This document shows positions 28,054-59,515 of a stretch of 64,000 nt of DNA, piece by piece. Below the pieces are notes generated by a model. That model had not been told where the DNA came from. It saw nothing but the letters and a program-made list of their open reading frames with translations, and made no database searches. How positions within the stretch are numbered: the first letter of the stretch is position 1; every line of letters starts with the position of its first letter. The DNA lies in assembly GCA_944391055.1 (NCBI GenBank), contig CALXSF010000004.1, positions 16,481-80,480 on the forward strand, given 5' to 3'. A program made the translations under genes and the position numbers. The stretch comes from an uncultured Kiritimatiellota bacterium. Its GTDB lineage: Bacteria > Verrucomicrobiota > Kiritimatiellia > RFP12 > DVOR01.

Positions 28054-29796
28054 TCAGGGTTTTTCGGCGGTCTCTTCACGGACCAACGCGATGAAAGCTT
28101 CCGGTGTCATGGTTCCCAAGTCCCCGGCCTCGCGACTGCGCACCGCGACGACGCCGGCCTCTGCCTCACGGCCGCCGATGACAAGCATATACGGGATCTT
28201 GGACAAGGTGGCCCTGCGAATCTTGGCGCCGATTTTGTCACCCGACCAATCGCCCTCGCAACGGAGTTCGGCCGCTTGCAGTTTGGCGAGGATCGCCTTA
28301 GCCGCAGGGAGCTGGGCGTCGGTGATGTTGAGCACTTTTGCTTGAACGGGGGCGAGCCATGTCGGGAAAGCGCCCGCATAATGCTCGATGAGAATGCCAA
28401 AAAAGCGTTCCAACGAGCCGAGCAGGGCACGATGCACCATATAGGGCTGATGTTCCTTGCCATCCTCCCCCGTGTACGTGAGGTGGAAACGCTCGGGAAG
28501 ATTGAAATCGAACTGAATCGTGCCCAATTGCCATTCACGGCCCAAGGCATCTTTGATTTTCATGTCGATTTTGGGGCCGTAGAATGCGCCGCCGCCTTCG
28601 TCGACCTCATAGGCGAGGCCCTCCGCCTCCAACGCCTGGCGCAGGGAAGCCGTGGCCTGATTCCACTTTGCGGGATCGCCGACCGCCTTTTCCGGCTTGG
28701 TGGAAAGATAGGCAGAAATGTCGGTAAAGCCAAAACGCCGCAATATCTTGAGGCAAAAACGCACGGTGAAGCGGATTTCGTCCTCGATGGTTTCGGGCGC
28801 GCAGAAAATGTGCGCGTCGTCTTGCGTGAATCCGCGAACCCGGAAAAGGCCGTGGCGCACGCCATCCTTCTCGTACCGATAAACCGTCCCCAACTCCGCC
28901 CACCGCAAAGGCAAATCGCGATAACTGTATTTCTTGAAAAGGTAAGCCTGAATATGGAAAGGACAATTCATCGGCTTGACATAATAGGTTTCGTGCGAGA
29001 CCCTGTCGCCGTCCCCCTCCGTTACATCCATCGCCGGGAACATGCTGTCTTTATAGAACCCCAAGTGCCCGGATGTCTCCCACAGGTTCGACCGTCCGAT
29101 ATGGGGCGTAAACAACATCTCGTAACCGTGGCGAAAATGTTCCCGCCGCCAATAATCCTCGATGGCCACCCGGATGCGCGCCCCCTTCGGCAGCCAATGC
29201 GCCAACCCCGGCCCAACACTTTCGGTGATCGTAAAGAGCTCAAGCTCCTTGCCGAGTTTGCGATGGTCGCGCCGTTTGGCCTCCTCGATACGTTGCACGA
29301 TCGCATCCAATTCCTTCTGCGAAGAGGCCGCGATGCCATAAAGGCGCTGAAGCATTTTGTTATGCTCGTCCCCACGATAATAACTGCCAGCCACGCTCAC
29401 CAATTTCACCGCCCCCACGCAGCCGCTGTGCGGCACATGCGGCCCCCGGCACAAATCCACGTAGTCGCCGGTTCTGTAGATGGAGATTGGCTCCCCCTCC
29501 GGGATGTCCGCCAAACGCTCCAACTTATAAGGCTGGTCCTTGAAAAGCTCCTGCGCCTCCTCCCGCGTCAACTCTTCACGCACGAAAGGCAGCTTCGCCC
29601 CGATCAGTTTGCGAACGGCCTTCTCGATCGCCGGGAAATCCTCCGCGCTCAGACGGTGATCCAAGTCAAAATCATAATAAAAACCATCGTCGGTCGCCGG
29701 CCCAATATCAATCTTTACATCGTCAAACAACGAACACACCGCAGACGCCACCAAATGCGCCGCGCTATGTCGGATTTCCTCAATCGTCACACTCAT
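28054..29796 (-). CDS. thrS: Threonine--tRNA ligase
   Basis: RHSAAHL, DLCRGPH, RDHRKLG, KPMNCP, RVRGFTQDDAH, AFYGPKID, HRALLGSLERF. Confidence 0.97.
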   Translation of the reverse strand: MSVTIEEIRHSAAHLVASAVCSLFDDVKIDIGPATDDGFYYDFDLDHRLSAEDFPAIEKAVRKLIGAKLPFVREELTREEAQELFKDQPYKLERLADIPEGEPISIYRTGDYVDLCRGPHVPHSGCVGAVKLVSVAGSYYRGDEHNKMLQRLYGIAASSQKELDAIVQRIEEAKRRDHRKLGKELELFTITESVGPGLAHWLPKGARIRVAIEDYWRREHFRHGYEMLFTPHIGRSNLWETSGHLGFYKDSMFPAMDVTEGDGDRVSHETYYVKPMNCPFHIQAYLFKKYSYRDLPLRWAELGTVYRYEKDGVRHGLFRVRGFTQDDAHIFCAPETIEDEIRFTVRFCLKILRRFGFTDISAYLSTKPEKAVGDPAKWNQATASLRQALEAEGLAYEVDEGGGAFYGPKIDMKIKDALGREWQLGTIQFDFNLPERFHLTYTGEDGKEHQPYMVHRALLGSLERFFGILIEHYAGAFPTWLAPVQAKVLNITDAQLPAAKAILAKLQAAELRCEGDWSGDKIGAKIRRATLSKIPYMLVIGGREAEAGVVAVRSREAGDLGTMTPEAFIALVREETAEKP

Positions 29797-29820
29797 GTCT
29801 GCTCCTTGAAATCTCCCACT

Positions 29821-29849
29821 ATTATATCCGATTCCCTCACGCAACGCAA
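29821..29849 (-). promoter_or_regulatory. Sigma70 promoter of thrS-infC
   Basis: Minus strand TTGCGT, 17 bp, TATAAT; SD AAGGAG before the thrS ATG. Confidence 0.7.
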
Positions 29850-30280
29850 AAGAATGAATCCTCCGCAATGCGATGGCACGTTGTAAGATTAGGCCGTGAA
29901 TTTTCCAAGAGGAAGCGAAAGGCCCCTAGGCCCCCCCTAGGGGGGCCGGCCGCGAACCGGAACGAAAAAGGAGATATTTTAGACGAATGCGTATCAGTGA
30001 TTCCCATTGCTGGGGAGAGTGCGGGGATACGATAGGCGAGGATTTCGTAGCGTTCGTCTCGCCGCTTCTCCAGGTCTTGGTCGGGGGACAGCATCGCTGG
30101 CGTCGCACTGAAGACCGGCGCTTGCCTCAGAATAAGGCGGCCAGCCGCGTTCGTGACGATGGCGTTGGCCTCTTGGGCGCTATAAAGGGGGACCACCTTC
30201 TCCTCCCCAGATGAGGCGTCGGAAACCCATTTCTCCGCAAACGCCCATCCGCCGTCAGCCGTTCCGAAGACGACGTTCAT
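29837..30280 (-). pseudogene. Truncated orphan C-terminal cassette (copy C) of the 1954-aa hydrolase
   Basis: NVVFGTADGGWAF...YRIPALSPAMG matches the big gene, but the tip lacks WLHSDIKN and runs into the thrS promoter region. Confidence 0.75.
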
Positions 30281-30286
30281 ACCCTT
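30003..30286. repeat. ~284-bp direct repeat, copy C
   Basis: Matches 31493-31776 and 32984-33267, with a divergent patch at about 30058-30100. Confidence 0.93.
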
Positions 30287-30298
30287 TTATGGTGCATA

Positions 30299-31300
30299 TT
30301 ACGGTTCAACATAACCATGGACGTCTTTGAGTAGATTGTGCTCGGGGTCAAACTCAAGATTGGTGTCATTCTCCGTGGGATTCAAATAGAATGGAAGACG
30401 TATACGGGAACACCCGTGCCAAAAGTTGAAAATCGAGGCATGAGGCTGGTAAATCTTTCCATAATGTGCACCTACCAGACGCCCACTGCCATCAAATCGG
30501 GTACGAGTTCTAAAGACATAACCCGTCCCTTCTGGGAATAGTTTCCTCTCCAATTTCTTTGTTTGCGAATTAATCCGCTCAGAGAATGTCATCTCTTTCT
30601 GATACATTTTGGCGGGTATCGCGTGATACGGAGCCTTATACCTAACAGAATCATACATTTTACGGGGTTCATAGTGAAACGCATAATATCCGGCATCTTT
30701 ATCAGGGAATCGTATTCTTAGCGTTGAGCCAGTGTATTCGCGTCCATCTTTCCCATCCCACTCATGAATAATCTCAACATCGGCATGACTGCCTTTGCCA
30801 TAAGGAGAAAGCCAGTCATTCTTTGTCATATCAAACCCAATCCATTCATTCCGCACTGGAATTGGGTTGTCATGCTGACGGCCATTGGCATACATTGGAA
30901 TGGGATTCACGCGTTCCTTGAGTACGATTGTAAGTACGGGATTCCACGGTTGCCACTTCCCATCTTTTACGTTTTCAGAGGGTGAATCATAGTCATAGCG
31001 GAAAATTGTATTGTAATACTTATTGAATCCATTAGGGTTACGCACTGTCTTGTAAACAACATTACTAAAGATTGCACTGCCCATAACAGGACTAGAAAAC
31101 GTAACATAGCCATTTTCATCTGGTTTTTTTCTTATGTCTGCTTTACCATTTTCAAACGAAGCCGTTATTTCTGTATCTGTTACAGGTTTTTCATTTTGGT
31201 TTACGACACGAAGCGTAATCTTCGCCTGTGGATGTTGTACCAACCATCCTGAAGTCATTATAACAGCGACATAGTAACAAACTACATTTAATAATTTCAT
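30299..31300 (-). CDS. Putative immunity protein, paralogue 2 (exported)
   Basis: AT-rich; N-terminal hydrophobic segment; shares AKITLxVVNQN, WxPWNP, NPIPMYA, FDxxKNDW, FRTRT, YGKxY and NPTENDTNLEFDPE with 31790-32782; ATG overlaps the stop of cassette B (ATGA). Confidence 0.7.
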   Translation of the reverse strand: MKLLNVVCYYVAVIMTSGWLVQHPQAKITLRVVNQNEKPVTDTEITASFENGKADIRKKPDENGYVTFSSPVMGSAIFSNVVYKTVRNPNGFNKYYNTIFRYDYDSPSENVKDGKWQPWNPVLTIVLKERVNPIPMYANGRQHDNPIPVRNEWIGFDMTKNDWLSPYGKGSHADVEIIHEWDGKDGREYTGSTLRIRFPDKDAGYYAFHYEPRKMYDSVRYKAPYHAIPAKMYQKEMTFSERINSQTKKLERKLFPEGTGYVFRTRTRFDGSGRLVGAHYGKIYQPHASIFNFWHGCSRIRLPFYLNPTENDTNLEFDPEHNLLKDVHGYVEP

Positions 31301-31776
31301 AGGTCACCTTCAGGTTTTCTGCATTGAAAAATGATTCTTAATTGAACGAATGCGTTAAAAGTGTGGAGAAAAGACATGTTTTTAATGTCACTATGCAACC
31401 AACGATGCGCATACCCTCCTGAAGACCTTGGCCAGTTAGGTGTTATATCAAGCGACATCATCGTAAATTTATTAATATTTACATCACGTTCGCCCATTGC
31501 TGGGGAGAGTGCGGGGATACGATAGGCGAGGATTTCGTAGCGTTCGTCACGTTGTTTTTCTGGGTCTGGGTCGGGAGACAACATCGTGGCCGTCGCACTG
31601 AAGACCGGCGCTTGCCTCAGAATAAGGCGATTAGCCGCGTTCGTGACGATGGCGTTGGCCTCTTGGGCGCTATAAAGGGGGACCACCTTCTCCTCCCCAG
31701 ATGAGGCGTCGGAAACCCATTTCTCCGCAAACGCCCATCCGCCGTCAGCCGTTCCGAAGACGACGTTCGTACCTTT
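31297..31776 (-). other. Orphan C-terminal cassette (copy B) of the 1954-aa hydrolase with an alternative tip
   Basis: KGTNVVFG...YRIPALSP is near-identical to the big gene, followed by a different tip that keeps WLHSDIKNM; the frame is open back to ATG 31860 inside the upstream gene. Confidence 0.85.
31493..31776. repeat. ~284-bp direct repeat, copy B
   Basis: About four substitutions (by eye) versus copy A across the ~270-bp core; offset 1491 bp from copy A and 1490 bp from copy C. Confidence 0.95.
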
Positions 31777-31789
31777 TTCATGGAACCCA

Positions 31790-32782
31790 TTATGGATCAA
31801 CATAACCACGAACATTTTTGAGGAGGTTGCGTTCGGGGTCAAACTCAAGATTGGTGTCATTCTCCGTAGGATTGAAATAATAGGATAACGTTATACTCAT
31901 TCTTGGTTTTCCAGGAATAGGTTGAAGAAGTCGCCCATCAACTCCGTACAATTTCCCATATCGAGCAGATTTTAACCGTCCATTGTTATCAACCTTTGTT
32001 CGTGTTCTGAAAATGAGGCCTTTTGTTGAGTCGAATTCTGCGGAGACAACCCGATTGCTCGCCTCATCCTTTTTCTTGTAAAATGCAACGTGATGTCGAT
32101 AGTCTGCATAAATGTCAGCACGATATGGCGATTGCAACCCCGATGTTTTATCTCGCTCAAAGAGATACATTCCCGCATGAGGCTGACGGATTCGAAACTC
32201 TATTTGATAGCCCTCAAAGGATTCTCCTTTTATCCCATTCCAAGCCCCCCTGACCTCTAAGTCACAAAAGCGTCCAGCGCCCCAAGGCGCGACCCAATCA
32301 TTTTTCTCTAAGTCAAAGGCAAGCCATTGATTTAAAATGGGAAGTTCTACACGATTGCGCATTCCTGTCGCATACATCGGAATTGGATTAATATACTCTT
32401 TCAATGGCATTTCGACGATTGGATTCCACGGCTCCCATCTTCCTTCTTTTGCGTTTCTAGAGGGAGACAAGTAATCGCGACGTAAATACGTTGCATAATA
32501 TTTATCTATTGCGGCAGGGTTGTGCACAGTCTTGTGAATAATATTGCCAAAGACAGCATCTCCAAGAACAGGGCTGGAATATGAAATGTACCCGTCTTTA
32601 TTAGGTTTTTTTATTATATTTTGACGGCCTCCCCAAAAAGAAGCCGAAACCTCGACATCTGTCACAGGAATATTATTTTGATTGACAACATGAAGCGTAA
32701 TCTTTGCAACCGGGGGTCGGGCAAAGCAACCGGTAGCCCAGAAAAAAAACACCTGCAACAATAACGCTATGGAATATTTCAT
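31790..32782 (-). CDS. Putative cognate immunity protein, paralogue 1 (possible lipoprotein)
   Basis: AT-rich; starts 11 nt after the hydrolase stop; signal MKYSIALLLQVFFFWATGC; paralogous to 30299-31300. Confidence 0.7.
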   Translation of the reverse strand: MKYSIALLLQVFFFWATGCFARPPVAKITLHVVNQNNIPVTDVEVSASFWGGRQNIIKKPNKDGYISYSSPVLGDAVFGNIIHKTVHNPAAIDKYYATYLRRDYLSPSRNAKEGRWEPWNPIVEMPLKEYINPIPMYATGMRNRVELPILNQWLAFDLEKNDWVAPWGAGRFCDLEVRGAWNGIKGESFEGYQIEFRIRQPHAGMYLFERDKTSGLQSPYRADIYADYRHHVAFYKKKDEASNRVVSAEFDSTKGLIFRTRTKVDNNGRLKSARYGKLYGVDGRLLQPIPGKPRMSITLSYYFNPTENDTNLEFDPERNLLKNVRGYVDP

Positions 32783-32793
32783 AAAACCTCACT

Positions 32794-35700
32794 TTACTGT
32801 GAAATGAAAGAGGACAACTCAATGAACTCTTGCCACACGTAATAAAATGCCATATTCTTAATGTCGCTATGTAGCCATTTTCCCGAAAGCGAACCACTCC
32901 TTCGCCCCCAATTCGTAGTTGAAGCATTCAACGGAGACATTGTCATTACCCCTTCTAAAGAATTTCTGAGAGTCCCAGTCCTTCCCATTACGGGGGAAAG
33001 TGCGGGGATACGATAGGCGAGGATTTCGTAGCGTTCGTCACGTTGTTTTTCTGGGTCTGGGTCGGGAGACAACATCGCGGCCGTCGCACTGAAGACCGGC
33101 GCTTGCCTCAGAATAAGGCGATTAGCCGCGTTCGTGACGATGGCGTTGGCTTCTTGGGCGCTATAAAGGGGGACCACCTTCTCCTCCCCAGATGAGGCGT
33201 CGGACACCCATTTCTCCGCAAACGCCCATCCGCCGTCAGCCGTTCCGAAGACGACGTTCGTGCCTTTGAGGAACTCCTGTTTTTGCCATGCGTAACGACC
33301 AAACGATGTTTCGGGAACAAGGCTCGCCAAAAGGTCCCAAGGAGGCCATCCCTCGAATTGCCATCGCAGAACACCACGATATTGCGGCGGAAAGAGACCA
33401 TCCTCAATATCGGTGCGAAGTTCGAAGACCTCATCTTCTTCCGAATAAAAGTTATAGAACTTCGTCGTCGGGGATTTTTGGGCGATGTCCTCGAAAAGTC
33501 CGGCCCATCTCATTTGGGACTGTGGTTCGGAGGCAGAGAAGAGTTCGTTCCAGCGGGAGGCATAGGTGCGGGGGTCATAATCGCGCCAATCCTGGGGGAC
33601 GAGAGTGGCTTGATTGGCCGTGGCGTCTTGCAGCGAGGCGTCGAAGGCCTCTGCGGGGATGGCGGCGTTGAGGAAAACATAATTGTCGGGCTTGAACCCA
33701 TAAGAGCAAATCGCTTCCGAAACGACAATGTTTCCAAGGCTGTGGGCGATCACCGAGGTTTGCGAGGCTTGAGGCAGTTGTTTGGCGGCCGCGGCAAACG
33801 CTTTGGCGGTCTTGAAGGCGTTATAGACATTGAGATGGTAGTGCAACGCGGGAAGGCCAACAAGTTCGGAGAGCGCCTCGTCTCCGCGCCACGTGACGCC
33901 ATAAAAGTTCATGTCAAGCCCGGATTGGTAAAGCCGTTTATACATCTCGGCGTGCCAGCCTCGGGCTGCATCCTCCGAGACATTGAAACCATGCAGGAAG
34001 AGCACGTTGGGGACGGAGGGGTTGTGCGCAAGCGTCGCCTCCGTCCGAGAGCCGGATTCGACACTGCGCAGATCGATGCGCCCATACATTTCTTCGACAG
34101 GAAGGACGTTGAGCGGAAGTTCGGTTTTCCACACGCACAGGTCATCGTGATAGAGGCCAAGCGTGAGGGGCGCGCTTGAACGGCGTATTCCTTCTGCAAG
34201 GATAACACCCTGATTCGGGTTGCCGCGGATGAGTTTCACAAACTTCTGTGGAAGCTCAAGTCCGTCATCCGTGACCGTATACGTGGAGGCATCAAGCAGC
34301 CGTTTGTCGAGATTGTCATCACATCCCGCACAGTTTTCAGTGAGATACGCCCCACTCTGACCTCGCTCCAAGGACGTCCAGACAATTTTGATGGCGCTGT
34401 CGGCCTGACACAGTTTGATCGTAAGATCACCAGCCTCATACGCGGCCCTTATGTCCTCCCTGCTCCCCAAAAATCCCAAGAGCGCCTGCGCATCGACATG
34501 GATGGGAAAGAAATCCAAAAAGTCGCAGACCCCATCCACGGAACCGTTGCTCGCATCCACAAAAAGGGTGGCGGCCGGGATATCCTCATCCTTTTCCGAA
34601 TAGTCTTTGTTCACGCTGTCATCGTCGTCATTTATCCACAACCGGAACGGCAAACCATTGGTCGCCAAAAACACATCTTGTGCGTCAATCATGAGGTCTC
34701 GTTGATAATCCGGGACAAGCGCACTGGCGATGTCGGGGATATGCACGACCGCGCTCAAGCCGCCTGCGACATTCCCACCCTCGCTTTCCCTCATATGCGT
34801 GTGCCCACATAATAACCCATCGTCGTTCTCCGCCCAAAAGCCTTCGCCAAAGACAAGCGTCGCCACGTCTTCCTTCCGCTCGGGACTGTAATTCGCATAG
34901 GTTTGCTGCGAAGGCTGCCCATTCACTTGCGCACTCCAACAATACCATTCTTCATCTTCCCCCGCCTTTGTTTCCAGCCAATGCATGGTGACTTTATAGG
35001 AACATCCTTTGCGCAGTTGAAACACCGACTCCTCTTGAGAGCCTGGGGTTCGCATATGATGCTTCAGGAGTCGGCTGTCCGAAAGAGTCCCCTCCCCTTG
35101 TCCGAGTCCTTGGATGCGCATCTCCCAAGCCGCGTAGTCCCCGGCAATCGAAAATGCCATTTGCACAAGTTCGGAATCCGGCAGCGGCTCGTAGTCCAAG
35201 GGGTCTGTCGGGTCGGTACCCTGCTCCGTCTCCTGCCAGTCCGAAACCCCATCATTGTCTGTGTCTGCGTCATGGGGGCTTGTCCCGTTGATGGACTCCT
35301 CCCAATTGCTCAGTCCATCGCTGTCAGGGTCTGCCTCCGTGACATCCGCGCCATCGGCCATGAGCGGCTCAAACCCATAATTGCTCTCCCATCCGTCAAT
35401 GAGATGGTCGCCGTCCGAGTCGGGATGAAGGGGATTTGTCCCGCGCTCCACCTCGTCCCCATCGGGAAGACCGTCCTCATCACTGTCGGGATTGCCCGGA
35501 TTGAGACCTTGCGCGACCTCCTGCTCGTTCGTGAGCCCATCCCCATCCCAATCCCCCGATGGGGATGCGGAAGGGTTGGAGGAACCGTTGTCCAAAGGAG
35601 GCAAGCCATAGCGGATCTCCAAGCCATCGGCCATCCCATCGCCATCGCTGTCGATGACATTGGGATCGGTATGATACATTCGGACTTCTTCTTTGTCCGT

Positions 35701-38658
35701 GAGGCCATCCCCATCGCCATCTTTCGAGAGCGGATCCGTCTTGATCGACAGTACCTCTTCCTTGTCCGACAATCCGTCCCCATCGCTATCCGCAAGGCAT
35801 GGATCCGTCTGCATACGCAATGTGTAGTGCAAGGCCTCCCCCGAAACAAGCGCGTTGGCTGTGTTATACGCAAACTGAATCGGGAGGAACGCATCGGGCT
35901 GACGCACACCAATCGTCGCAGAGGCGCAGTCAAACCCCGTATACAAAGACGGGTACTGAACGATAATGGTGTCATCGGTGTCATACGGGACAATCAACCT
36001 CATATAGACACTGCCATCGCCGTGTGATGTGTAAAGCCCCATGTAGGAAAGGAGAAAACACGGCTTCCCTTCATAGATGCATTCTCCATATTGGATGTTC
36101 CCAGGTTTCGCCGCAACAATCTTCAAGTCATCCCAATACAAAGCGACGCTCAAATATGCCCTGTCCTCATCCCATTCATCCAACGGTTCATTGTCACATT
36201 CCGAGGCGATTTCATCCTCCGCCTGAGACGCTCGCAAGAAATGCGCCACCCCATTGACATCGATGACAACGGAGGTGTATGTCCTCCCGGCGAGCGTGAC
36301 AGGCCTCGGCAGTGTTGTCCTCGCGACCGAATCGTCAATGTTTGTCCCGACCGCGAAGGCCAAGCCAAAAAGAGAGATCGCTTCCGGCTCTTTCAAAGGA
36401 ATCTTTTGCGCAAGGCCAACGATTGCGCCATCCAAGAGGCCATCCTCATCGGTGTCGGCAATGTTGGGTTGGGTCCCAAACAGATATTCTTGAAGGTTGG
36501 GTAAGCCGTCATGGTCAAAATCGCCCTCCGCCCCATAGTCACCAACGGCATTGAGAGGTTGAAGGCCATGGCGCACCTCCCAGCCATCGGGCAAACCATC
36601 CCCATCACAATCCGGTTGAAGCGGATCAAGATAGCACCGATGATTCCCCGTGAGCAGAACACCCAAAATCTCTTCTCCATCACCCAAACCATCCCCATCC
36701 GTATCGAACCGATTGGGATCGGTCTTGTAACGTGAGCCAAAATACTCCTCTTTGTCCGTGAGGCCATCCCCATCGCCATCTTTCGAGAGCGGATCCGTCT
36801 GAGTCCCCGGGACGCACACAATGGACATCGCGGAATCGATGGCGTCATCTTGGTTGCACGCATATTGCCAAACCTGCTTTCGCGCGGGATTCTGGATGCC
36901 AATGGTCGCGGAACCCCCTCGGACATTCCCACCCACATCCTTATAATTGAAAAAGACGGATGAGACGTTCTCGCCCTCACGTGCCTTCCGAAACGCGATC
37001 TGAAAGGAGAGTCGCCAATCCGCGACCGAAGCGTCGCGGCGCGAATAAGGGCACAGATTGCGATAATCGATGACAAGGTATTCGTCTCCGTCTTCGACGA
37101 CAATCGCATGGCGAATTTTGGAATCATGCGCCACATCGGCCGCCAAATCATCCCAATAGCCGGCAATGAGCGGATGTTTCTCATACTGCCACGAACCAAG
37201 CAACGCCCTATTGTTCCCCTGCGCGTCTATTCGTTCATTGCTGCTCGGATCGCGCAACGTCACACACCCGTCGACGTCAATGATGAGCTCGGAATAGGCC
37301 GCTCCCCCAAGAATGATCGGAAACGCCTTGCACACAATGGCATACGTCTTGGAATCAAGCGGGGAATTTGCCCCCGCGGGATAATGTTCCGTCCAAGTGT
37401 CACTTTCGAACCACCTCGCGGCCTCACCTTCGCGAACGGCGATGGGCGCCGCCTCCTCGCCGTCAAGCAGCCCATCCCCATCCGTGTCTGCCCGAAGCGG
37501 ACTTGTCCCCAACCACACCTCTTCGCCATCAAGAAGGCCATCCCCATCCCCGTCGTCCACGGCAGTGTCCAACCCATGGACAAAGATTTTCTCCCAGTCA
37601 CTCATCCCGCTTCCAGAGGAGTCCCATTTGAGCGGATCCGTCTTGTAAACATACCGCTCAAGCAAATCCGGCAATCGGTCACCATCGGAATCCGTCTGAA
37701 GATCGACCAGACGAAAGAAATGCGGCGCGGCGTCCCCCTCCTCGCCCAAAAAGACGACGGTGCTCCCGATTCCATCCTCTTCATCCTCTTGCGCGACCTC
37801 CCCCCAAAAATCCCACGCAGGCTGCCCCAACGTTTGCGCCGTGACAAGCCCAAGCCGCGCCCCAGTCGCATTGTGAAAGGAAAGCGCCAATTCCCCTGGC
37901 GCGTGCGCCATCGCGGTGAACCGCACAGGCTTTGGCGGCTTTGGCTCCGCCTCGGCCGTCTCGGCCTGGCGTTGACGCTCCGCCGCCCGGGCGACGGCCG
38001 TCCGATAGTCCCCAAGCATCCCCTGGGGGACAAACGTGACCGAGAACCCAAACCGTTCACGCCCCCGCTCCCCATACCAACGTTGGATCGTTTCCTCACT
38101 TTCCTGTGCGAGCCAACGCGGCAGCGCCCCACCCTCCCCATACCAACGCAACACCCAGGCCGCCTGATCGAAAAACTGCGACACGGGAAATTGATGGCAG
38201 CAGGAAGGCCCAACGACCGTCGTAAACAGCCGCGACCCATCCTCCGCCACCGATTCCCAAACGTGCGCCGTCCAAGTCGGGATGCCTTCAAGAAAGATGG
38301 GCGCGACCCGTTCGGCGACCGCCGTGAAAGGCGGCGCGAGTTCCTCGACGCCCATCGGGATTGAAAAGCGGTATCCCTCTGGCGTCGGCGGATAAAGCGG
38401 CGTCCGCGAACCGATTCCGTCATACCATGCGCGCACCCGCGCATTCCAGTCGCTCCAATCATACCCCACATAGGCCATCACATCGTCCGTATAGGCGAAC
38501 ATATCCAGCACGGTTTGCCCCTCGCCAGATCCTCCCACGACATTTCCCTGAACAGCAGACGTATCTTCTGCCAAAAGCAACCCACTCCTGGCAATTGATG
38601 ACAGAAAGACGAAACAAGCAACGAGACGAACAAACACATCCATACTTTTCATGCACAT
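32794..38658 (-). CDS. Large secreted protein: TSP3-like Ca-binding repeats, two nidogen(NIDO)-like modules and a C-terminal DUF900-like alpha/beta hydrolase (putative lipase toxin)
   Basis: N-terminal signal-like segment; many DxDGDGLxDxxE repeats; two YWDDL modules; LFLHGFNV, IAHSLG (Ser), LNAAIP, NFYSEEDEVF (Asp), WLHSD (His). Confidence 0.82.
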   Translation of the reverse strand: MCMKSMDVFVRLVACFVFLSSIARSGLLLAEDTSAVQGNVVGGSGEGQTVLDMFAYTDDVMAYVGYDWSDWNARVRAWYDGIGSRTPLYPPTPEGYRFSIPMGVEELAPPFTAVAERVAPIFLEGIPTWTAHVWESVAEDGSRLFTTVVGPSCCHQFPVSQFFDQAAWVLRWYGEGGALPRWLAQESEETIQRWYGERGRERFGFSVTFVPQGMLGDYRTAVARAAERQRQAETAEAEPKPPKPVRFTAMAHAPGELALSFHNATGARLGLVTAQTLGQPAWDFWGEVAQEDEEDGIGSTVVFLGEEGDAAPHFFRLVDLQTDSDGDRLPDLLERYVYKTDPLKWDSSGSGMSDWEKIFVHGLDTAVDDGDGDGLLDGEEVWLGTSPLRADTDGDGLLDGEEAAPIAVREGEAARWFESDTWTEHYPAGANSPLDSKTYAIVCKAFPIILGGAAYSELIIDVDGCVTLRDPSSNERIDAQGNNRALLGSWQYEKHPLIAGYWDDLAADVAHDSKIRHAIVVEDGDEYLVIDYRNLCPYSRRDASVADWRLSFQIAFRKAREGENVSSVFFNYKDVGGNVRGGSATIGIQNPARKQVWQYACNQDDAIDSAMSIVCVPGTQTDPLSKDGDGDGLTDKEEYFGSRYKTDPNRFDTDGDGLGDGEEILGVLLTGNHRCYLDPLQPDCDGDGLPDGWEVRHGLQPLNAVGDYGAEGDFDHDGLPNLQEYLFGTQPNIADTDEDGLLDGAIVGLAQKIPLKEPEAISLFGLAFAVGTNIDDSVARTTLPRPVTLAGRTYTSVVIDVNGVAHFLRASQAEDEIASECDNEPLDEWDEDRAYLSVALYWDDLKIVAAKPGNIQYGECIYEGKPCFLLSYMGLYTSHGDGSVYMRLIVPYDTDDTIIVQYPSLYTGFDCASATIGVRQPDAFLPIQFAYNTANALVSGEALHYTLRMQTDPCLADSDGDGLSDKEEVLSIKTDPLSKDGDGDGLTDKEEVRMYHTDPNVIDSDGDGMADGLEIRYGLPPLDNGSSNPSASPSGDWDGDGLTNEQEVAQGLNPGNPDSDEDGLPDGDEVERGTNPLHPDSDGDHLIDGWESNYGFEPLMADGADVTEADPDSDGLSNWEESINGTSPHDADTDNDGVSDWQETEQGTDPTDPLDYEPLPDSELVQMAFSIAGDYAAWEMRIQGLGQGEGTLSDSRLLKHHMRTPGSQEESVFQLRKGCSYKVTMHWLETKAGEDEEWYCWSAQVNGQPSQQTYANYSPERKEDVATLVFGEGFWAENDDGLLCGHTHMRESEGGNVAGGLSAVVHIPDIASALVPDYQRDLMIDAQDVFLATNGLPFRLWINDDDDSVNKDYSEKDEDIPAATLFVDASNGSVDGVCDFLDFFPIHVDAQALLGFLGSREDIRAAYEAGDLTIKLCQADSAIKIVWTSLERGQSGAYLTENCAGCDDNLDKRLLDASTYTVTDDGLELPQKFVKLIRGNPNQGVILAEGIRRSSAPLTLGLYHDDLCVWKTELPLNVLPVEEMYGRIDLRSVESGSRTEATLAHNPSVPNVLFLHGFNVSEDAARGWHAEMYKRLYQSGLDMNFYGVTWRGDEALSELVGLPALHYHLNVYNAFKTAKAFAAAAKQLPQASQTSVIAHSLGNIVVSEAICSYGFKPDNYVFLNAAIPAEAFDASLQDATANQATLVPQDWRDYDPRTYASRWNELFSASEPQSQMRWAGLFEDIAQKSPTTKFYNFYSEEDEVFELRTDIEDGLFPPQYRGVLRWQFEGWPPWDLLASLVPETSFGRYAWQKQEFLKGTNVVFGTADGGWAFAEKWVSDASSGEEKVVPLYSAQEANAIVTNAANRLILRQAPVFSATAAMLSPDPDPEKQRDERYEILAYRIPALSPVMGRTGTLRNSLEGVMTMSPLNASTTNWGRRSGSLSGKWLHSDIKNMAFYYVWQEFIELSSFISQ
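32984..33267. repeat. ~284-bp direct repeat, copy A (inside the hydrolase gene)
   Basis: Direct sequence match to copies B and C. Confidence 0.95.
35690..36800. repeat. Exact 52-bp direct repeat pair (35690-35741 and 36749-36800) within the large gene
   Basis: TCTTTGTCCGTGAGGCCATCCCCATCGCCATCTTTCGAGAGCGGATCCGTCT twice, 1059 bp apart (in frame), encoding TDPLSKDGDGDGLTDKE. Confidence 0.9.
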
Positions 38659-38716
38659 CCATACTTTTCATATTAATGAATATGAACGATGAAGTCAACC
38701 CAATCACCCTTACACG

Positions 38717-39193
38717 CAGGGCAAACGCATCTAATTTTGGTAACGATAAAGGGATGAATGAGAATCATGTTTTGTTTCGTTTGATGTTGGCAGTCAAAGT
38801 GCCCCGAGTGGCGCGGACACGGGTGTATGAACTGCCGCAAATTCTCTTTTGCACCGTGGTGGCGATGCCCTCAGGGGCGACGACGTTCACGGAAATGGAA
38901 CTTGTCACGAGGACGAGACGGAAGTGAATAGAGAAATGGATCGCATTGCCCGGAATACCGAGCCATGAGACGTTCAATCGGGTGTTGCAATTGATCCCGC
39001 TTTTGGTTCCCAAAGGGCACCGACTTTCTCCAAGGTCTCCCTGCGGAAATCATCCTTGTCCAAAACCGCCTCAACGCCATCTCCCGATTCAAATCCCTGA
39101 AAGGACTCTCCGCCCATGAAGCTTTTCTCAGTCTTTCCTGAACCCTTGGCCCATTTTGCTTGCAAACGGCGCTCCGCAATGCGATTTGCGCGG
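38717..39193 (+). mobile_element. Degenerate, internally deleted ISAs1-family (H-repeat) element
   Basis: From ATG 38754: PRVARTRVYELPQILFCTVVAMPSGATTFTEME...*IEKWIALPGIPSHETFNRVL, the ISAs1 transposase N-terminus with an in-frame TGA at 38925; left end CAGGGCAAACGCAT (38717-38730) and a degenerate inverted copy ATGCGATTTGCGCGG (39179-39193). Confidence 0.72.
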
Positions 39194-39483
39194 TCGCGCG
39201 GAAGAAGGGCTGAGGGAGGAAAAGGTGGCGGGCGGTGACCCAACCAAAACGGAAAGTGGGGCGGGGCCCGAGGTGACTTGCGGCGGACTTGGGGGGGCGA
39301 TGCGGGCGGATCCGAAGAATGAGCCGCGCAATTGCGTTTGGGCGCGGCCCCCCACCCCGTCTTTCCCGGGGGGCGGCGAGAGCGTCAGAAGCACCTCGCC
39401 GCAGGGGGCCATCACCGCCCTCCCCGTGCCGGCGGCTTGCCGATCGCGAAACCGGCCGGCCGCCGCTGTGGTATACTATCGGC

Positions 39484-41316
39484 ATGGATTATGGCAAATG
39501 GACGGACGCGGCGTCATCCGAGTGGGAGGACGAGCAGGAAGCTTACCTAGATCAAGAGGCCGAGGCGCAATGGCAGGCCACCTTGCAGGATCGCGCGTTC
39601 ATTTGGGAGCGGGATTTCGCCAATCTCTCCGAGGAGGCCCGGGAAAGCCTGATGGCCCGGCTAGACGATCTCCCGGAGAACGTGCGCGGGGTGTTGCAAT
39701 GCATTCTACGCGCGCGCGGCTTGCCCCCCTGCGACGAAGGGTTCCCGACAATCATGCCGCCCGAGGCCTACAAGCAAAAACGGCTGACGCGTCTCTACGC
39801 GAAGTTGCAGCTCGACGAGACGATGCGCGAGGGGCTGCGCCGCACGCTGAACGCGATGACCAATCTGTATGGCGCCATCGGCGTGCGCGAGATTTGGGAG
39901 TGGCTGCGGCGGCACCGCCCCGGCCTGCTCACGGAAAAGCAGTTTTTCGAGTTCATGCGCGTCCTGCGGCATGATTTGGACGACCGCTACCGTTTCGTCT
40001 TGCTCTCGCTTCAGGAATGTCACGGCAATCTGTTGGCGCACGCATCGCCCCTAACGGCCCGGGATCGCATCTTGGTCAATCGTTCGCTGGTGGCCCAGAA
40101 GACGCCGACCGAGTGGGAGACCTCCGCCCTCTCCTTGCTGCTGTGGCGTCAGTTGCTCTGGCGATGTGAGGCGGATTTGGACGTCGAGCCGGACGAGTTG
40201 GCCCTTTATGAAGAAACGGAGGCCGTCTATGAGCCGACGGCCGAGACGGAGGCCTTCCGGGCCTTTCTGTCGCGGCCCGAGGTGCGCCTCCGCGAGGGGT
40301 TGACGGCGGATGGGGCCTTCACGAATCTTCTTTTCCAGGCACCGCTCCCGATTGTCGGAAGCCTGACGACGCTTGACCTGTTGGACATGGCCTACGCCGC
40401 GGGCGTCCAAGTCGTGGGCGAAGAGGCGCAGACGGCCTTCGCGGAAAGTTTCCACGACGCGCTCCAATGCGTCCGCCGCCGCGATCTGCTGGGCAATCGC
40501 CTGACGGCCAAGCTGACGGCCCCGGAACCGGAGGAGGACGAGACGCCGCCGTTGGAGGAGCCCGAGGATTGCGGCGAGGACGAAACGCAGGAGGCCGACA
40601 CACCCTCGTCGGGCGCGATGAGTCGCATGGGAACCATCCTCTTCTCCTTGCTGAGTCTCCATGGCATCGTCCGCTTGAAGGATTTTTGCCGATGGCTCCC
40701 TCGGTGGGAGCCGGATCTGAAGATACCGACCGAGCAAATCCGCAAGTTTTTCGCGGGCTTTGAGCGACTTGGCGCGATTGCTCCTCTGCCGCCATCCTAC
40801 GAGACCATCGAGGAGGAAGGCGAAACTGGAGAGGAAGATCTCGCGATGCTCCATCCCCGGCTGCTCACCACACAAGGCGACATCGACGACGACACCATCG
40901 AGGCGTGGTTGGATTACGAAGCCCTGTACGACAGCCCTTACCTGCCGGAAACATTGCCGGAGGCGGTGGCGGACAACGTCGACTTGCTGACGACGAAGGA
41001 TCCCTCACTCTGCGAACCGGCCTCGGCGGCGGACGCCCTGCGCGCCCTGCTGGCGGACCCGACGATGGGGGTGCCGCCTTGGAGGCGCGAGGCGTTGTTC
41101 GGCGCCTGCCTTTCCATCGCGCACACGACATTGACCGAGGATCCGCTGGCGGCGGCGCTTTTCTGTGCGCTCTGCGAGTTCCGTCTGCCCTTCGACGCCG
41201 CCCAGACGGCGCGCTTCCTGGAGGCGTTCGCGGAGCTGCACGCCCACACCCGCCTGTTCGCGCTGGGCGGCAACCGGCCGATCGACTGTTTCAGCGACGC
41301 GGACGACGGCAAATGA
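39484..41316 (+). CDS. Acidic hypothetical protein with a twofold internal repeat
   Basis: Halves start NLYGAIGVREIWEWL / SLHGIVRLKDFCRWL and end CVRRRDLLGNR / HTRLFALGGNRP; extended -10 lies 6 nt before the ATG. Confidence 0.7.
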   Translation: MDYGKWTDAASSEWEDEQEAYLDQEAEAQWQATLQDRAFIWERDFANLSEEARESLMARLDDLPENVRGVLQCILRARGLPPCDEGFPTIMPPEAYKQKRLTRLYAKLQLDETMREGLRRTLNAMTNLYGAIGVREIWEWLRRHRPGLLTEKQFFEFMRVLRHDLDDRYRFVLLSLQECHGNLLAHASPLTARDRILVNRSLVAQKTPTEWETSALSLLLWRQLLWRCEADLDVEPDELALYEETEAVYEPTAETEAFRAFLSRPEVRLREGLTADGAFTNLLFQAPLPIVGSLTTLDLLDMAYAAGVQVVGEEAQTAFAESFHDALQCVRRRDLLGNRLTAKLTAPEPEEDETPPLEEPEDCGEDETQEADTPSSGAMSRMGTILFSLLSLHGIVRLKDFCRWLPRWEPDLKIPTEQIRKFFAGFERLGAIAPLPPSYETIEEEGETGEEDLAMLHPRLLTTQGDIDDDTIEAWLDYEALYDSPYLPETLPEAVADNVDLLTTKDPSLCEPASAADALRALLADPTMGVPPWRREALFGACLSIAHTTLTEDPLAAALFCALCEFRLPFDAAQTARFLEAFAELHAHTRLFALGGNRPIDCFSDADDGK

Positions 41317-50516: not shown

Positions 50517-53500
50517 TCAGCCGCCCTGTGCCGCCTCGGCGGCCAAGGGGGACGCCGAACGGCAGGCCTCGACGCGGAAAAGTCCCCCATCCGATTCCTG
50601 CGGCGCCGTGATGGTGACGCTCCGCCCATCAGGCCCCACGGCCTCCGAGACGCCCAAGACTCGGTCGTCCGAGACGGAGCGGAGACGGAACGTCGTGCCA
50701 GGGACGAAACTGGCCCCGACCGGCGCACGCAGCGCGGCGGCGACCGCGAGGCGCCCCCCGTCAAACGTCAGATCCGTGACGGCAAAGTCATAGCACACCT
50801 CCACGCCGCCCTCCCCATCCGCGTGCGCGATCCCATCCAGACACGCCAACGCCTCGGAAGTCGCCGCCGCGTCAAGTGGCCTCCCGTTGCCCAACGCCCG
50901 AACGGCAGAAGGGACGACATTGCCGTTGACGCGCGTGAGCGTGGCCGCGGCGGCGGGAGAATAGGCGGAGGCGTCGTCGTCGGCGCCATTGGGCTTGGGC
51001 GGCGGCGTGGGACGCACCCAGATCTCCAGGTTTCGGACGGCGTAAGCGCCAAAGGTGAAGGCCTCGGCGAATTCATCAAGGAAAACCCCGTTGACGGAAG
51101 GCGTCCGACCGCTGGTGTGGGTGGCCAGATCCCCGATGAGCACCTCATCCTCCCCACTGTCGGAGCCCCAACGGTTGTAGGCGAAAAGCAGCGTCGCCGG
51201 GGTGGCGGCCTCGGCCGTGCGAAGCCAAAACTGGAAAATGCCGTAGGCGCCCGTGGCGTTGAGGGTGTCGTTCCAGTCATACCATCCGGCGAGACCGGCG
51301 GGAAGCCCGGACGCGCCGTCCGCCGAGCCCGCGCTCCCGGGCGCGAAGGCCACAAAGCACGCGGCGGGGCCGGCGGCCTCGGGGAAGGCGTTGCCGAAGA
51401 CGTGCGCGTCTCTCAGGTCTGCCTGAAGCACGGCGTCTGGCAGCCCCAAAGGCAACGCGCCCGGCGCGGCCGCCGCGGAGACCCAGACCGTCCGGACGGG
51501 GCCGCCGGGACGGGCCAGCTCCAAATAATAGGCCACACGGTCAAAATCCGGGACCGTGTCCTTCTCCAACGCGGCCTCCGCCTCGTCGCGCACGGCGGCG
51601 GAACGAAGCCCCTCCGGCGTCCACCGGACACGGATGTAACCCTCGGCCTCCGGGATGTTCGCCTTGGCGCCAAGCCCGGCCGGCGCGAACGCGGCCTCGG
51701 CCGTCTCGGCCGCGGCCTGCCCGGCGCGGCGGGCGGTGAGGCTCAGCGCGACCTCCCGCCCGGCGGCAAGCGGCTGTGGGAGGGCGCCCGTGAGGACACG
51801 CCCGTCCTCGGAGAGCGTCAGTCCCTCGGCCTCCTGCCCTGCGACCGTAAGGCGGAGCCCGTCGGGCACGACGTTGTGGTTGAGCGCGACGGCGACCCGC
51901 GCGCAATCCCCCTCCGGCGACCAGGCCGCGACGACGGCGAGCGCTTCCCGGAGCCCCTCCTCCCGGGCGGCGATTTGCTCGATGGCCGCGCGCCACACCG
52001 CCGCCATGCGGTTGTAGCCGGCCTGGTTCGGATGGAGGTTGTCGAGGAACCAAGGATTGGCCGCCCCCCGCTCGGCGAAACCGATCGCGTCCAACATGCT
52101 GGCCAAGCGCACCTTGGCCGTTTCGCCGAAAGCCGCGCGCCCGGCGGCGTTGGGGACGCCGAGCACGCAGGGCACCGCCGCGCCGTCCGCCTCGACCGTC
52201 CGCTCGGAGATGTCGAAAAGGCTGAGGATGGCTTCGTTGTAGGCGGGGCGGAAGGCGTCGGCCTTGTAATCCTCTTCGGTCTGGCCACGCGTGGCGATGA
52301 TGGGGGAGACGATCACCCAGGCGTCCGGGCGCAACGCCACGAGGCGCCGCACCAACGCCCGCCATTGCGCAAAGGCCGCCGCGGGGTCGCCGCCCGCGTC
52401 GTTCGTGCCGATCATGAGGGTGATGACGTCAGGGTGGCCGGCGGCATCCAGGAAATTGGCGACCCCTTCCAGATAACCGGCGCGATTGCCGCCGGTATGG
52501 ATGCGCTGCCCGCTGATGCCGTTGTGCCTGCGGCACTCCGGCAAGGTCGGCGCGTTGGCCGCGGCGAGCGCGTCGGAGTAGAGATTCTCCCAAAAGCCTG
52601 CCGAACGGACAGACCAGGCGTCCGCCGCGAAGCCATCGAAGAGCGGCCGCCGCCAGTTCGCGCCATTGGAGGAGCCATGCGTGATGGAATCGCCCATCGG
52701 CAAGACGGTCAGGTTGGCCTCGGCGCGGCGGACGGTGGCCAGGAGCCGATTGCCCAAGACGCTGAGGGTGAGCGCGGGCGGGCACGCCTCCGACCAATCG
52801 ACGAGCGCCTCCCAAACAGCCTCCCAATCCGCCGCGCCGTCCTCGGGAAGCGTAAGCACCGCTCGCGAACCGACGGGGGCAAGCGCCAGCGCTCCCGTGT
52901 CCAAGCCCAACCGCGTCCGCGCCGCGTCAAAACGCGTGCACACGGCGCCCGCGCCGCACCGCGCCATGCCGTCGCGGGCGAACGCGACGATGGCCGCGTC
53001 GGAGGCCTCGCCGCGGAAGACGGCCACCCGCTCAAGGGTAAAATCAAGCCCGCCCGCCGTCGCGCCCACGAAGTTGCCGAAGCAGATTCGGTCGGCGCCG
53101 AGCCCCGTCCCCTGAAGCCCCGTGACCGCGGTCCACGCGGGCGTGCCGCCCTCGCAGGGGAAGACGGTCATGCGCACAGGCCGTGTGCCCGTGGTGAAGG
53201 CCACGCACACGCTCCCCTCGCCGTCGAGTGCGTCGGCCGGCGGGAAGACGTTGCAGCCGCCCCAGACGCCGTTGCCCCACGTGCCCGCCAGAGTGGGCCT
53301 GCCATTCGCCACGCGGAGCGCGCACCCCACGCCCGTCTTCCCGTCGCCGACATGGATCAGCGGCTTGCCGTCCGCCTCGCGCCACGGCACGCCGCGTACC
53401 ACGGCCACGACGGTCAGGGCGTCGGCGGAGTCGTAACCCACGCCCAGGGCCCGCCCGCCGAAGGTGAGCGTCGGCGCGGCGCCGCCCCCGGTGCGCAGGG

Positions 53501-58400: not shown

Positions 58401-59515
58401 AGCGTGAAGGCCGTCGTCGGCGCGAAGCCGCCGACGGCCAACGGCCCGCCCGCCAAGGTCAGCCCGCCATCCGCCCCGACCGTCGCGTCCGCGGGGATGA
58501 GCGGCGCCGCGTCCGGGTCGTCGCACGCGAAGCCCGCGAAGGCGGGTGCCTTCCCCTCGATGAGCAGACGGTTGCCCGCCACCTCGGGATCCTGCCACAC
58601 GCGCACGTAATCGATCTCGTGGGCGATGGGATAGCCCGCGCCATCCGTCGGCGGGTCGTTGGCCATGCTCCCCAGCGCCAGGTTCAGCACGAAGTGGAAA
58701 AGATTGTCCGCGAAGGGCGTCTCGCCGCTCTGCGGGGCCACGAGCGCGCCGGGGTCGCGCACAAGCACCGGTTCCCCGTCGAAGGTGATGGCCAGGCGTT
58801 CGGGCGTCCACTCCAACCCATACTCATGCCAGGCCGCGTCCGCGAGATCCGCTTGGTCCAAATCCTCGCACAGGAGCGTCTCGCCGTCCATCTTGTAGGC
58901 CGCGCCCGTCCACGAATCGCCCCAATGCAGGGTGGAATGGATGGTTTGGCGCGCCTGCGCGGCGGCCTCCGCGCCGTCGCCGTCGCGCGTCGCGTACTCC
59001 ATCAGGTCGATCTCGCCGCACTGCGGCCACGGGACGGTGGAGACCGCCCGCCAGAACGCTTCGGCGTCGCCGAGATCCCCCGGCGGGGTCTGCGTCGTGC
59101 CCAGCATCCAGATGGCCGGCCACGCCCCCGAGGCGACGCTGAAGCGCGCCCGAACCGCCACCCGCCCATAGCGCATGGAGAACTTGCCGAAGGAGTTCAC
59201 CGACCCCGAGGCGTAGGGCTTGGACTTGGTGTAACTCCTCCAATCCTCCCAGCCGTTCCGCCCGTAGAAGGGATTGGAATACCCGGCCTCGTCAAAGGTC
59301 GCCGTCAGCCGCAGCACGCCGTCCGCGACCGTGAGGTTTGCCGGGCCGGCGCGATAGAGCTGCGCCGCGCGGTCGTTCCGGACCAACCCCTGCTCCGCCG
59401 TCCACCGCGCGGCATCCAGCGCCGCCCCCTCGAACTCGTCATGCCACACCAGCACCTCCGTCGCCGAAACCAGCGACGCGGCGAACGAAACCAGAATGAG
59501 CCCAAGTCCGCGCAT
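55451..59515 (-). CDS. Secreted GH16 + LamG-like + GH33 (sialidase-like) fusion
   Basis: LVWHDEF, WPAIWM, WPQCGEIDLME, IDYVRVWQ (GH16); YRIP, Asp boxes SADFGRTW, STDGGETW, TTDFETW, GYVSL, GVLYE (GH33). Confidence 0.87.
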   Translation of the reverse strand: MRGLGLILVSFAASLVSATEVLVWHDEFEGAALDAARWTAEQGLVRNDRAAQLYRAGPANLTVADGVLRLTATFDEAGYSNPFYGRNGWEDWRSYTKSKPYASGSVNSFGKFSMRYGRVAVRARFSVASGAWPAIWMLGTTQTPPGDLGDAEAFWRAVSTVPWPQCGEIDLMEYATRDGDGAEAAAQARQTIHSTLHWGDSWTGAAYKMDGETLLCEDLDQADLADAAWHEYGLEWTPERLAITFDGEPVLVRDPGALVAPQSGETPFADNLFHFVLNLALGSMANDPPTDGAGYPIAHEIDYVRVWQDPEVAGNRLLIEGKAPAFAGFACDDPDAAPLIPADATVGADGGLTLAGGPLAVGGFAPTTAFTLTAEVTVPEGATGTLLGFRSGTHEVRFACREAGELSAFYDGWSQVAQTVALAPGRHRIRLTYDSERPNVGGAARDSATSGTRVWVDGALAYASPGLVWAGTAVPFLTFGNDASDAPDSPMAGLTVHAATLRLGVAESPFVCTDAAARWVLPAAPVCEPELVLSGGPLRLSGFGVGHAAVAVTVDATLPEGATGALVGWEVTRGDGEVFTAQAEACAAGHPIRHSGSMEHVATVTYGRPAAGRHLWTLVYSTAGGAALWEDGRLLAEAPGIKWSDAPLSAVTIGAAATGALPLAGLRVHAARVDFAETAVPDNPVAALYDVPEALRGLGVGPLLHLLRVRGALTVPEVSVNGERLGDRDAALALWAFGMDGGGAAEVAVGRLEVGDRVSVTLSDGTPALRNGALSLLGARTLDGAWERLAAFPAPVAAGATLEATAPGFPFLKVRAEETAGAPGPLADLRPAAPAERPLAAGSGTATLLGFAFAGDPADLGAAGRTTLTLTLSGTGLVPGGLYTLTIDGVAHAARLETPEGAAATGTLTFTGLAVTDGAQVTLAGPTDVNGSVSVAAGTWGGTGTTAHIAAVVADNLVKDGFVPADSALAAEGDGATIYRIPALATDGAGGVVAVYDVRYGGGDLGDSRLSGIDLGESFSADFGRTWGKPRLAVDVDNFRANDGSYPLGADRARITKEMDIGDAALLFDPEGERYWLMAITGGGLSYAGTDSARNDCVLYSRGADPDAPWEGRRSVKADILAGIGKSAHPGRGVLAGPGHGMVTRIGRAGMPRGTLVFPVQAFVNNGTGDAQCCAAYSTDGGETWRTTGLTPMPPGNAQENCILELDDGSWLMMSKGGSWGAGNGRRLFFRTTDFETWKPLADIPNVIHVQGSCLRIGTGADGVGRYVLAHQLDPDTRAKLALVFGRDLTADNPDAGQEGVAWDLENPLVIHAGATGGQGYVSLCLLDETTLGVLYEANNQIRFERIDLAPYLR

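Follow-up and report, generated by a model that had tools for sequence, protein, structure and literature searches.

We have analysed a locus in a stretch of 64,000 nucleotides from an uncultured gut bacterium of the Kiritimatiellota (assembly GCA_944391055.1, contig CALXSF010000004.1, positions 16,481 to 80,480), which we refer to as the window and whose own numbering is used here. The locus consists of a long gene that ends in a predicted alpha/beta-hydrolase, of two partner genes, immA and immB, and of two 3' fragments of the hydrolase gene, orphan B and orphan C; all of its parts are located on the minus strand, and its open reading frames (ORFs) follow one another in the order long gene, immA, orphan B, immB, orphan C. 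The anatomy of the locus has been confirmed, as has the position of the catalytic histidine in a short, variable C-terminal piece of the predicted enzyme, the tip.

The expressed gene (32794-38658) encodes a protein of 1954 amino acids with a signal-like hydrophobic N-terminus, bacterial TSP3 repeats (Pfam TSP3_bac, E 1.8e-46) and, at its C-terminus, a divergent alpha/beta-hydrolase. Residue numbers (Ser161, Asp263, His451) are counted within P0001, i.e. the last 475 residues of this ORF; the hydrolase core, delimited with an AlphaFold2 model and VIA-align, corresponds to P0001 residues 68-475 (32797-34020). The codon of Ser161, the predicted nucleophile in the motif AHSLG, is located at 33739-33741, and the codon of Asp263, the predicted triad acid in the motif YSEED, at 33433-33435. 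The first-pass annotation had placed both motifs upstream, in a single-copy part of the gene, and the coordinates agree with this, each motif being found once and upstream of the repeat that is described below. The gene immA (31790-32782; 330 amino acids), which begins 11 bases past the stop codon of the 1954-residue ORF, encodes an exported protein with a lipobox-like ATGC motif and is probably the cognate immunity gene for the tip of the expressed gene, tip A; immB (30299-31300; 333 amino acids) is a paralogue, 44% identical to immA, and probably provides immunity for the second tip, tip B. A search of the whole genome with the hydrolase domain recovered the main gene, orphan B and orphan C, and nothing else.

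The three copies of the hydrolase 3' region are linked by a direct repeat of 284 nt, which we refer to as the arm and whose copies are spaced by 1490 and 1491 nt. Arm copy 1 (32984-33267; 98% to the reference copy) is located inside the expressed gene, where it encodes approximately residues K319-G413 of the cap sub-domain; arm copy 2 (31493-31776) starts 14 nt past the immA stop codon and opens orphan B, which consists of this arm and of tip B; arm copy 3 (30003-30286; 94% to the reference copy) belongs to orphan C. In the DNA alignment, near-identity extends from ...AAAGG(C/T)ACGAACG as far as ...ATGGG, which encodes the last two residues (Met-Gly) of IPALSP(V/A)MG, and past this second point it collapses abruptly; breakpoints of this sharpness exclude a chance resemblance. 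On the upstream side, a conserved imm 3' end (NPTENDTNLEFDPE..NLLK) at 31776-31879, with a second, 84% identical copy at 30285-30388, runs straight into each arm.

Beyond the arm, the two complete cassettes diverge. Tip A (R414-Q475; 32797-32982, with the His451 codon at 32869-32871) and tip B (31297-31492, with the histidine codon at 31393-31395 and the stop codon at 31297-31299) each encode a strand, a histidine loop and a helix, strand β8 and the final helix in the case of tip A. Both tip sequences quoted in the first-pass annotation are present in the window, tip B at the very coordinates given there, and our alignment confirms its observation that they have essentially only NW.R and WLHSDIKNM.F in common: the tips are 37% identical at the protein level, compared with 99% identity over the 89 residues that precede them. 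The G+C content is 0.55-0.59 in the body and the arms and falls to 0.43 in tip A, 0.43 in immA, 0.37 in tip B, compared with 0.59 in the arm, and 0.42 in immB.

Orphan C (29837-30280), which adjoins thrS, retains of its tip only the first ten codons (ITDTHSSKIS; 29972-30001). These are followed by a dispersed repeat of approximately 98 nt (29875-29972, no strand assigned), which also adjoins thrS and contains a G+C-rich palindrome (CCCCTAGG...GGCCGGCC); it is matched at six other places in the genome, on contigs C7 and C17 (two each), C8 and C2, with 91-100% identity over 21-98 nt, and in four sequencing runs it coincides with a spike in contig depth and many loose ends. A reading of orphan C as a tip with a mutated or decayed histidine (RFLLEN) was rejected, as the stretch in question is the dispersed repeat. 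Since that repeat starts after ten tip codons, the third cassette has been truncated by a repeat element rather than through loss of its histidine. The same truncated form is found in 14 cluster members, on contigs of up to 178 kb, and an intact form occurs in other assemblies: P0163 starts with ITDTHSSKIS, just as the remnant behind the third arm does.

The AlphaFold2 model of P0001, built from an alignment of 60 sequences, has a mean predicted local distance difference test score (pLDDT) of 88.6 and a predicted template modelling score of 0.90, and it contains the eight-stranded alpha/beta core. In this model, the oxyanion HG motif (LHGFN) is located after the strand of residues 72-76, i.e. 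at the position after β3; Ser161 is located directly after β5 (residues 155-160) and before the helix of residues 163-174; Asp263 is located four residues past β7 (residues 254-259); and a cap insertion of about 150 amino acids (residues 264-420), which includes the arm, is located between β7 and β8. The variable tip comprises β8 (residues 422-427), the loop with His451, and the helices of residues 453-456 and 459-474. The strands follow one another in canonical order, and by sequence position and topology, the nucleophile elbow, the oxyanion HG motif, an acid after β7 and a histidine after β8 are all in place for the predicted triad Ser161-Asp263-His451. The modelled topology of the tip, together with the invariance of Ser161 and His451 in all 139 sequences of the family alignment, supports the first-pass proposal that only the last strand, the histidine loop and the final helix are exchanged: the exchangeable unit is a piece smaller than a domain that contains one residue of the predicted triad.

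Comparison of the model (residues 40-475) with 48,161 chains of the Protein Data Bank (PDB) by VIA-align gives Z scores of 12-15 to lipases and esterases, the match to 6nkc_B having Z 15.0 with 165 of 172 residues aligned (rmsd, i.e. root-mean-square deviation, 2.7) and that to PGAP1 (8k9t) having Z 12.4. The family profile matches relatives of pancreatic lipase at HGF...GHSLG (E 0.002), and in Pfam, P0001 matches Abhydrolase_6 (28.8 bits; cutoff 26.3) and, marginally, DUF900 (21.2 bits; cutoff 20.5). Foldseek against the PDB returned weak generic matches only (best E 5.7e-4), phmmer against the PDB found nothing below E 0.01, NCBIfam has no match for either the hydrolase domain or the imm proteins, and Rfam has none on 29000-39500.

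An exhaustive phmmer search has revealed a large family: 1884 cluster representatives were found at E<=1e-3, of which 552 reach E<=1e-30. Of the 150 best-listed of these 1884, 138 are matched over residues 75-455, the match in each of them ending at most 19 residues from the C-terminus of the protein. In the resulting alignment of 139 rows, Ser161, Gly78 and His451 are invariant (139/139) and His77 nearly so (138/139); Trp449 and Asp453, on either side of the histidine, are conserved in 135 and 137 rows, and position 263 is occupied by Asp in 101 members and by Glu in 38. Abhydrolase_6 matches 35 of 60 members and DUF900 matches 26 of 60. TSP3 repeats occur in 22 of the 29 long members, beside RCC1, beta-helix or MAM modules; RHS repeats occur in one member of 60. 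Within the genus, the system has a patchy distribution, being present in 3 of 12 other genomes.

Arrangements like that of the window, in which the expressed gene is followed by 3' cassettes that have an arm in common with it and each a partner gene of their own, recur in other genomes. Our census covered 49 main genes with at least 1300 nt of downstream sequence, and further 3' pieces were found in 14 of these loci; some are complete second genes (L008, L010, L015, L068), and 11 pieces, from nine loci, have no Ser region (L006, L011, L015, L018, L020, L026, L029, L038, L045). All 11 have kept the H-x-D motif, and they are usually located just before another imm copy. The starts of the orphans cluster at conserved motifs: at W.KQE..KG in L026 and L038, as in the window, at IPALS in L011 and L045, and at WLHSD itself in L006, L015, L018 and L029, where only the last helix consequently varies. 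In a relative from the same order (L090, G017:C47:1-3200), the orphan starts six residues before the acid motif YNYYSSGD, so that Asp and His both travel with the cassette; the two copies are there approximately 70% identical throughout, with no sharp arm. The genome of the window also contains, on another contig (G000:C11:34100-35430; L092:640-1940), a solitary module of tip and imm with no hydrolase body upstream: its tip piece reads …LLAYAIPERS…RWLHSDIKDVAF… and contains WLHSDIKDVAF, and the imm gene behind it is split by a frameshift and has no FRTRT…YGK segment.

There are further signs of exchange. In relatives whose hydrolase core is 70-83% identical, identity is 19-26% at residues 421-447 and 23-35% at residues 459-475, compared with 81-90% in the 11-residue histidine motif that lies between them. 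In 45 of 47 loci, the GC content of the last 60 codons is below that of the remaining hydrolase, and in 42 of 47 so is that of the imm gene. Short ORFs from public assemblies, with arms that are 96-100% identical to those of the window, carry other intact tips, and at least four intact tips (A, B, P0163 and P0165), 33-46% identical to one another, are now seen on near-identical arms; P0163 has six cluster members, on contigs of up to 23 kb, and P0165 has two, on a contig of up to 14 kb. A further candidate, P0164, in which an orphan-type leader and an arm are joined to tip A on a contig of 956 nt, could represent module A in an orphan position; it was not used, as it may equally well be a chimera that was assembled across the 284-nt repeat.

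Searches for tip B behind a hydrolase body gave no recombinant. The exact 20-mer of tip B has no match in metagenome contigs, and the Logan contigs of four runs over 29300-34300 break at the repeats, none of them joining the body to tip B; the contigs of run X7 leave approximately 31972-33140 uncovered, from which gap nothing is concluded. The contig joints 30002>31493 and 30403>32678 can be explained by repeat collapse or by a further imm allele. In runs X5 and X7, the matches of contigs of approximately 1.2 kb are limited to the two conserved ends, 5' and 3', of imm (30403 / 32678), with unfamiliar sequence in between; this suggests that those populations hold at least one more imm allele.

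The partner genes accompany the hydrolase across the family. Among 78 loci from Lentisphaerae, Kiritimatiellae, Verrucomicrobia and unclassified metagenome-assembled genomes, a homologue of immA and immB is located directly downstream of the hydrolase in 70, typically starting within a few hundred bases of its stop codon, and most of the 60 full-length imm copies start with a signal peptide or a lipobox. The AlphaFold2 model of immA (pLDDT 90.4) has two domains and is all-beta except for the signal helix: residues 22-131 are modelled as a domain like transthyretin or CarboxypepD_reg, and residues 134-313 form an all-beta domain whose nearest matches in the VIA fold comparison are BfrB and HmuY (Z 10.0 and 8.7). 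Pfam finds only CarboxypepD_reg (25/57) or Big_1 (13/57) in the imm set, both of them in the N-terminal domain; no immunity family was matched in Pfam (zero families for immA), in NCBIfam or among the VIA fold matches, and the ESM Atlas returns only unnamed Verrucomicrobiota clusters for immA. Complex prediction of the hydrolase domain with immA gave scores of 0.12, 0.55 and 0.00, which we count neither for nor against binding. Elsewhere in the genome, a distant, partial imm-like gene (G000:C13:53250-53786; L091:1251-1766), approximately 26% identical to immA over 179 amino acids, is located inside an open frame of 378 amino acids with no hydrolase nearby, and may be an orphan immunity gene.

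Two further observations concern the surroundings of the hydrolase. Just upstream of it, at 34300-34700 (residues ~1320-1450), an acidic pre-domain (LWINDDDDS…DFLDFFP) is found, which is common to the family according to the alignment consensus; nothing in Pfam matches it, and it could act in processing or delivery. At a distance of 12 kb, also on the minus strand, a giant protein of 1639 amino acids with two GDSL-type lipase/acylhydrolase domains is encoded at 50517-55436, after which comes a GH16/BNR-like protein of 1354 amino acids (55451-59515).

Taken together, the locus is best explained, in our judgement and with moderate confidence, as a polymorphic system of a putative lipase-like serine-hydrolase toxin and a putative exported immunity protein, which is diversified through the exchange of cassettes smaller than a domain. 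The constant body would supply the oxyanion HG motif, the serine nucleophile, the acid and most of the cap; the cassette would consist of the 284-nt arm, i.e. the end of the cap, of a variable tip of about 62 residues, and of its own imm gene. A new tip, along with its imm gene, would be placed behind the constant body by homologous recombination in the arm, with either incoming DNA or the resident copies as the source, and displaced modules would stay downstream as orphans that keep their imm genes. As the motif WLHSDIKNM is constant and both of its flanks vary, we propose that an exchange preserves catalysis and alters the rim of the active site, this rim being the surface that the immunity protein would most likely read. 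Recognition of the tip by the immunity protein is a plausible proposal, with indirect support from the hypervariable flanks of the histidine motif among close relatives and from the low GC content that tip and partner gene have in common across the family. The data themselves establish the anatomy, the conservation of the predicted triad residues in the family, the pairing of the two genes, the presence of several tips on near-identical arms and the retention of the histidine in orphan tips; toxicity, immunity, a lipid substrate, the secretion route and the contact between tip and immunity protein are inferred. Orphan toxin/immunity cassettes are well known, and normally they swap a complete toxin domain.

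Several results weigh against this explanation. The mirror-tree comparison of 48 hydrolase-imm pairs does not single out the tip: imm distances correlate with those of the core (r 0.71) and the arm (0.71) and less with those of the tip (0.53), and the partial Mantel correlation with imm is 0.26 for the tip compared with 0.34 for the arm. Shared ancestry and the short, saturated segments limit what this comparison can tell. The same 138 of the 150 best-listed representatives all end in the same full hydrolase, with variation confined to its last part; the family carries the same enzyme throughout, unlike the unrelated toxin domains of classical polymorphic toxins, and no alternative, unrelated C-terminal toxin domain was found among these 138, scaffolds with other C-termini not having been searched for. 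No long protein with tip B occurs among 14 matches, the best of which (76%) is the window's own tip-A protein. No type V, type VI or type VII secretion genes were found in a scan that was confined to the 13 neighbouring ORFs. Lastly, the acid of the triad could be Asp263, the neighbouring Glu264 or another residue.

The parallels with polymorphic toxins such as Rhs, CdiA and MafB (Zhang et al. 2012, PMC3482391) extend to four features: a large exported scaffold with a C-terminal toxic activity, which is putative here; a cognate gene directly behind it; 3' cassettes that have no promoter, have an arm in common with the expressed gene and carry their own immunity gene; and low-GC modules with a patchy distribution. 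Unlike in those systems, the breakpoint is here located inside the catalytic domain and the cassette comprises only β8, the histidine loop and the last helix, so that one residue of the triad is variable and two are constant; moreover, the scaffold is rich in TSP3 repeats, and no secretion system of the three types named above was seen among the scanned neighbours. The entries of the same survey on Tox-ABhydrolase-1, -2 and -3 list these domains with SUKH, Imm66 or Imm69 immunities or with none; an exported all-beta immunity protein, such as the partner in the window would be, is not listed in those entries.

The Tle phospholipases of the type VI secretion system are likewise alpha/beta-hydrolases with a GxSxG motif and large insertions, and their Tli partners, like the imm proteins, have a signal peptide or a lipobox, as is expected for periplasmic protection. 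In the VIA-align comparison, Tle3 (from the Tle3/Tli3 structure 8boz) is matched with Z 12.3 over 226 residues (rmsd 4.0), which is no better than the matches to generic esterases and hydrolases; Pfam gives no match to the Tle families and the scanned neighbours include no type VI secretion genes, so that the hydrolase and its partner have not been found to belong to Tle/Tli. The window's protein differs from Tle in its N-terminal Sec-type signal, in place of a linkage to VgrG or PAAR, and the fold of its partner, transthyretin-like and HmuY-like, gave no match to an immunity family in the Pfam, NCBIfam and VIA comparisons described above.

Of the explanations that do without toxicity, the one that survives best, though we regard it as improbable, is that the hydrolase serves nutrition or host interaction as a lipase/esterase that is secreted or located at the surface, and that the downstream all-beta lipoprotein is a dedicated helper (an anchor, a docking partner, a chaperone or an export factor) that binds the C-terminal tip and co-varies with it as a docking pair. 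It would accommodate an exported two-domain beta protein outside the known immunity families, the lack of a dedicated toxin secretion system among the 13 ORFs, the presence of the same enzyme throughout the family, and a neighbourhood in which glycoside hydrolases and a large GDSL lipase-like protein are encoded. A docking pair would however gain nothing obvious from arrays of promoterless 3' pieces with a partner gene apiece, which are a hallmark of polymorphic toxin loci; the solitary modules of tip and partner and the partner-only copies elsewhere in the genome, the patchy distribution in the genus, and the hypervariable tips on near-identical arms are left equally unexplained. Lipase-specific foldases (Lif) are helical steric chaperones that are encoded downstream of the lipase; the partner is all-beta and does not correspond to them.

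A second explanation, which we consider still less probable, is that the variation of the tip retunes substrate specificity or alters an exposed epitope or phage receptor, and that the partner gene has merely been co-duplicated. In alpha/beta-hydrolases, the histidine loop and the helix after β8 border the active site, as the topology of our model also indicates, and conserved blocks around variable minicassettes resemble the antigenic variation of pilE/pilS, where silent cassettes with partial 3' copies act through gene conversion; W.KQE..KG, IPALS..G and WLHSD flank variable minicassettes in a comparable manner and could serve as recombination arms. Unlike in pilE/pilS, a partner gene comes with every cassette in the window, neither recombination machinery nor a G4-type initiator has been identified, and the purpose is probably the diversification of toxin and immunity. 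A change of substrate or epitope alone would not need each tip to travel with its own diverged partner gene, and tip and partner have a common compositional signature.

Finally, it is just as improbable that the downstream copies are inert remains of old tandem duplications, with arms kept similar by recent duplication or by occasional, functionless gene conversion, for although the near-equal period of 1490/1491 nt, the truncation of the third cassette by a repeat element, the frameshifted imm gene of the C11 module and the failure to find tip B in the expressed position all fit such an origin, tip B and immB are intact ORFs, the orphan pieces of other genomes have all kept H-x-D, the arms (96-100% identical) and the tips (33-46%) are separated by breakpoints a few bases wide, and the tip on a given arm differs between strains.

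Returning to the toxin-immunity explanation, we put forward a broader version of it more tentatively, as a proposal that may well prove to be wrong: the family would represent undescribed interbacterial lipase-like toxins of the Planctomycetes-Verrucomicrobia-Chlamydiae (PVC) superphylum, in which a constant body gives the serine and the acid, and a minicassette gives β8, the histidine and the last helix, along with a new exported all-beta type of immunity protein that reads the rim of the active site. The motifs W.KQE..KG, IPALS..G and WLHSD would then be recombination arms inside the domain, comparable to VENN in CdiA, and specificity would be reshuffled with the chemistry unchanged. No description of the family, or of an in-domain cassette exchange that involves a catalytic residue, was found in the open PMC and bioRxiv text.

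What distinguishes this system is that the recombination breakpoint is located inside an enzyme fold, and that a predicted catalytic residue moves with the variable piece. If the partner is an immunity protein, immunity specificity could be re-coded by about 60 residues around the active site, which would make the locus a compact natural system for the evolution of enzyme-inhibitor specificity, and the 1884 representatives from gut and environmental Lentisphaerae, Kiritimatiellae and Verrucomicrobia would constitute an antagonism system that is widespread and as yet uncharacterised, and in which a new immunity fold takes part.

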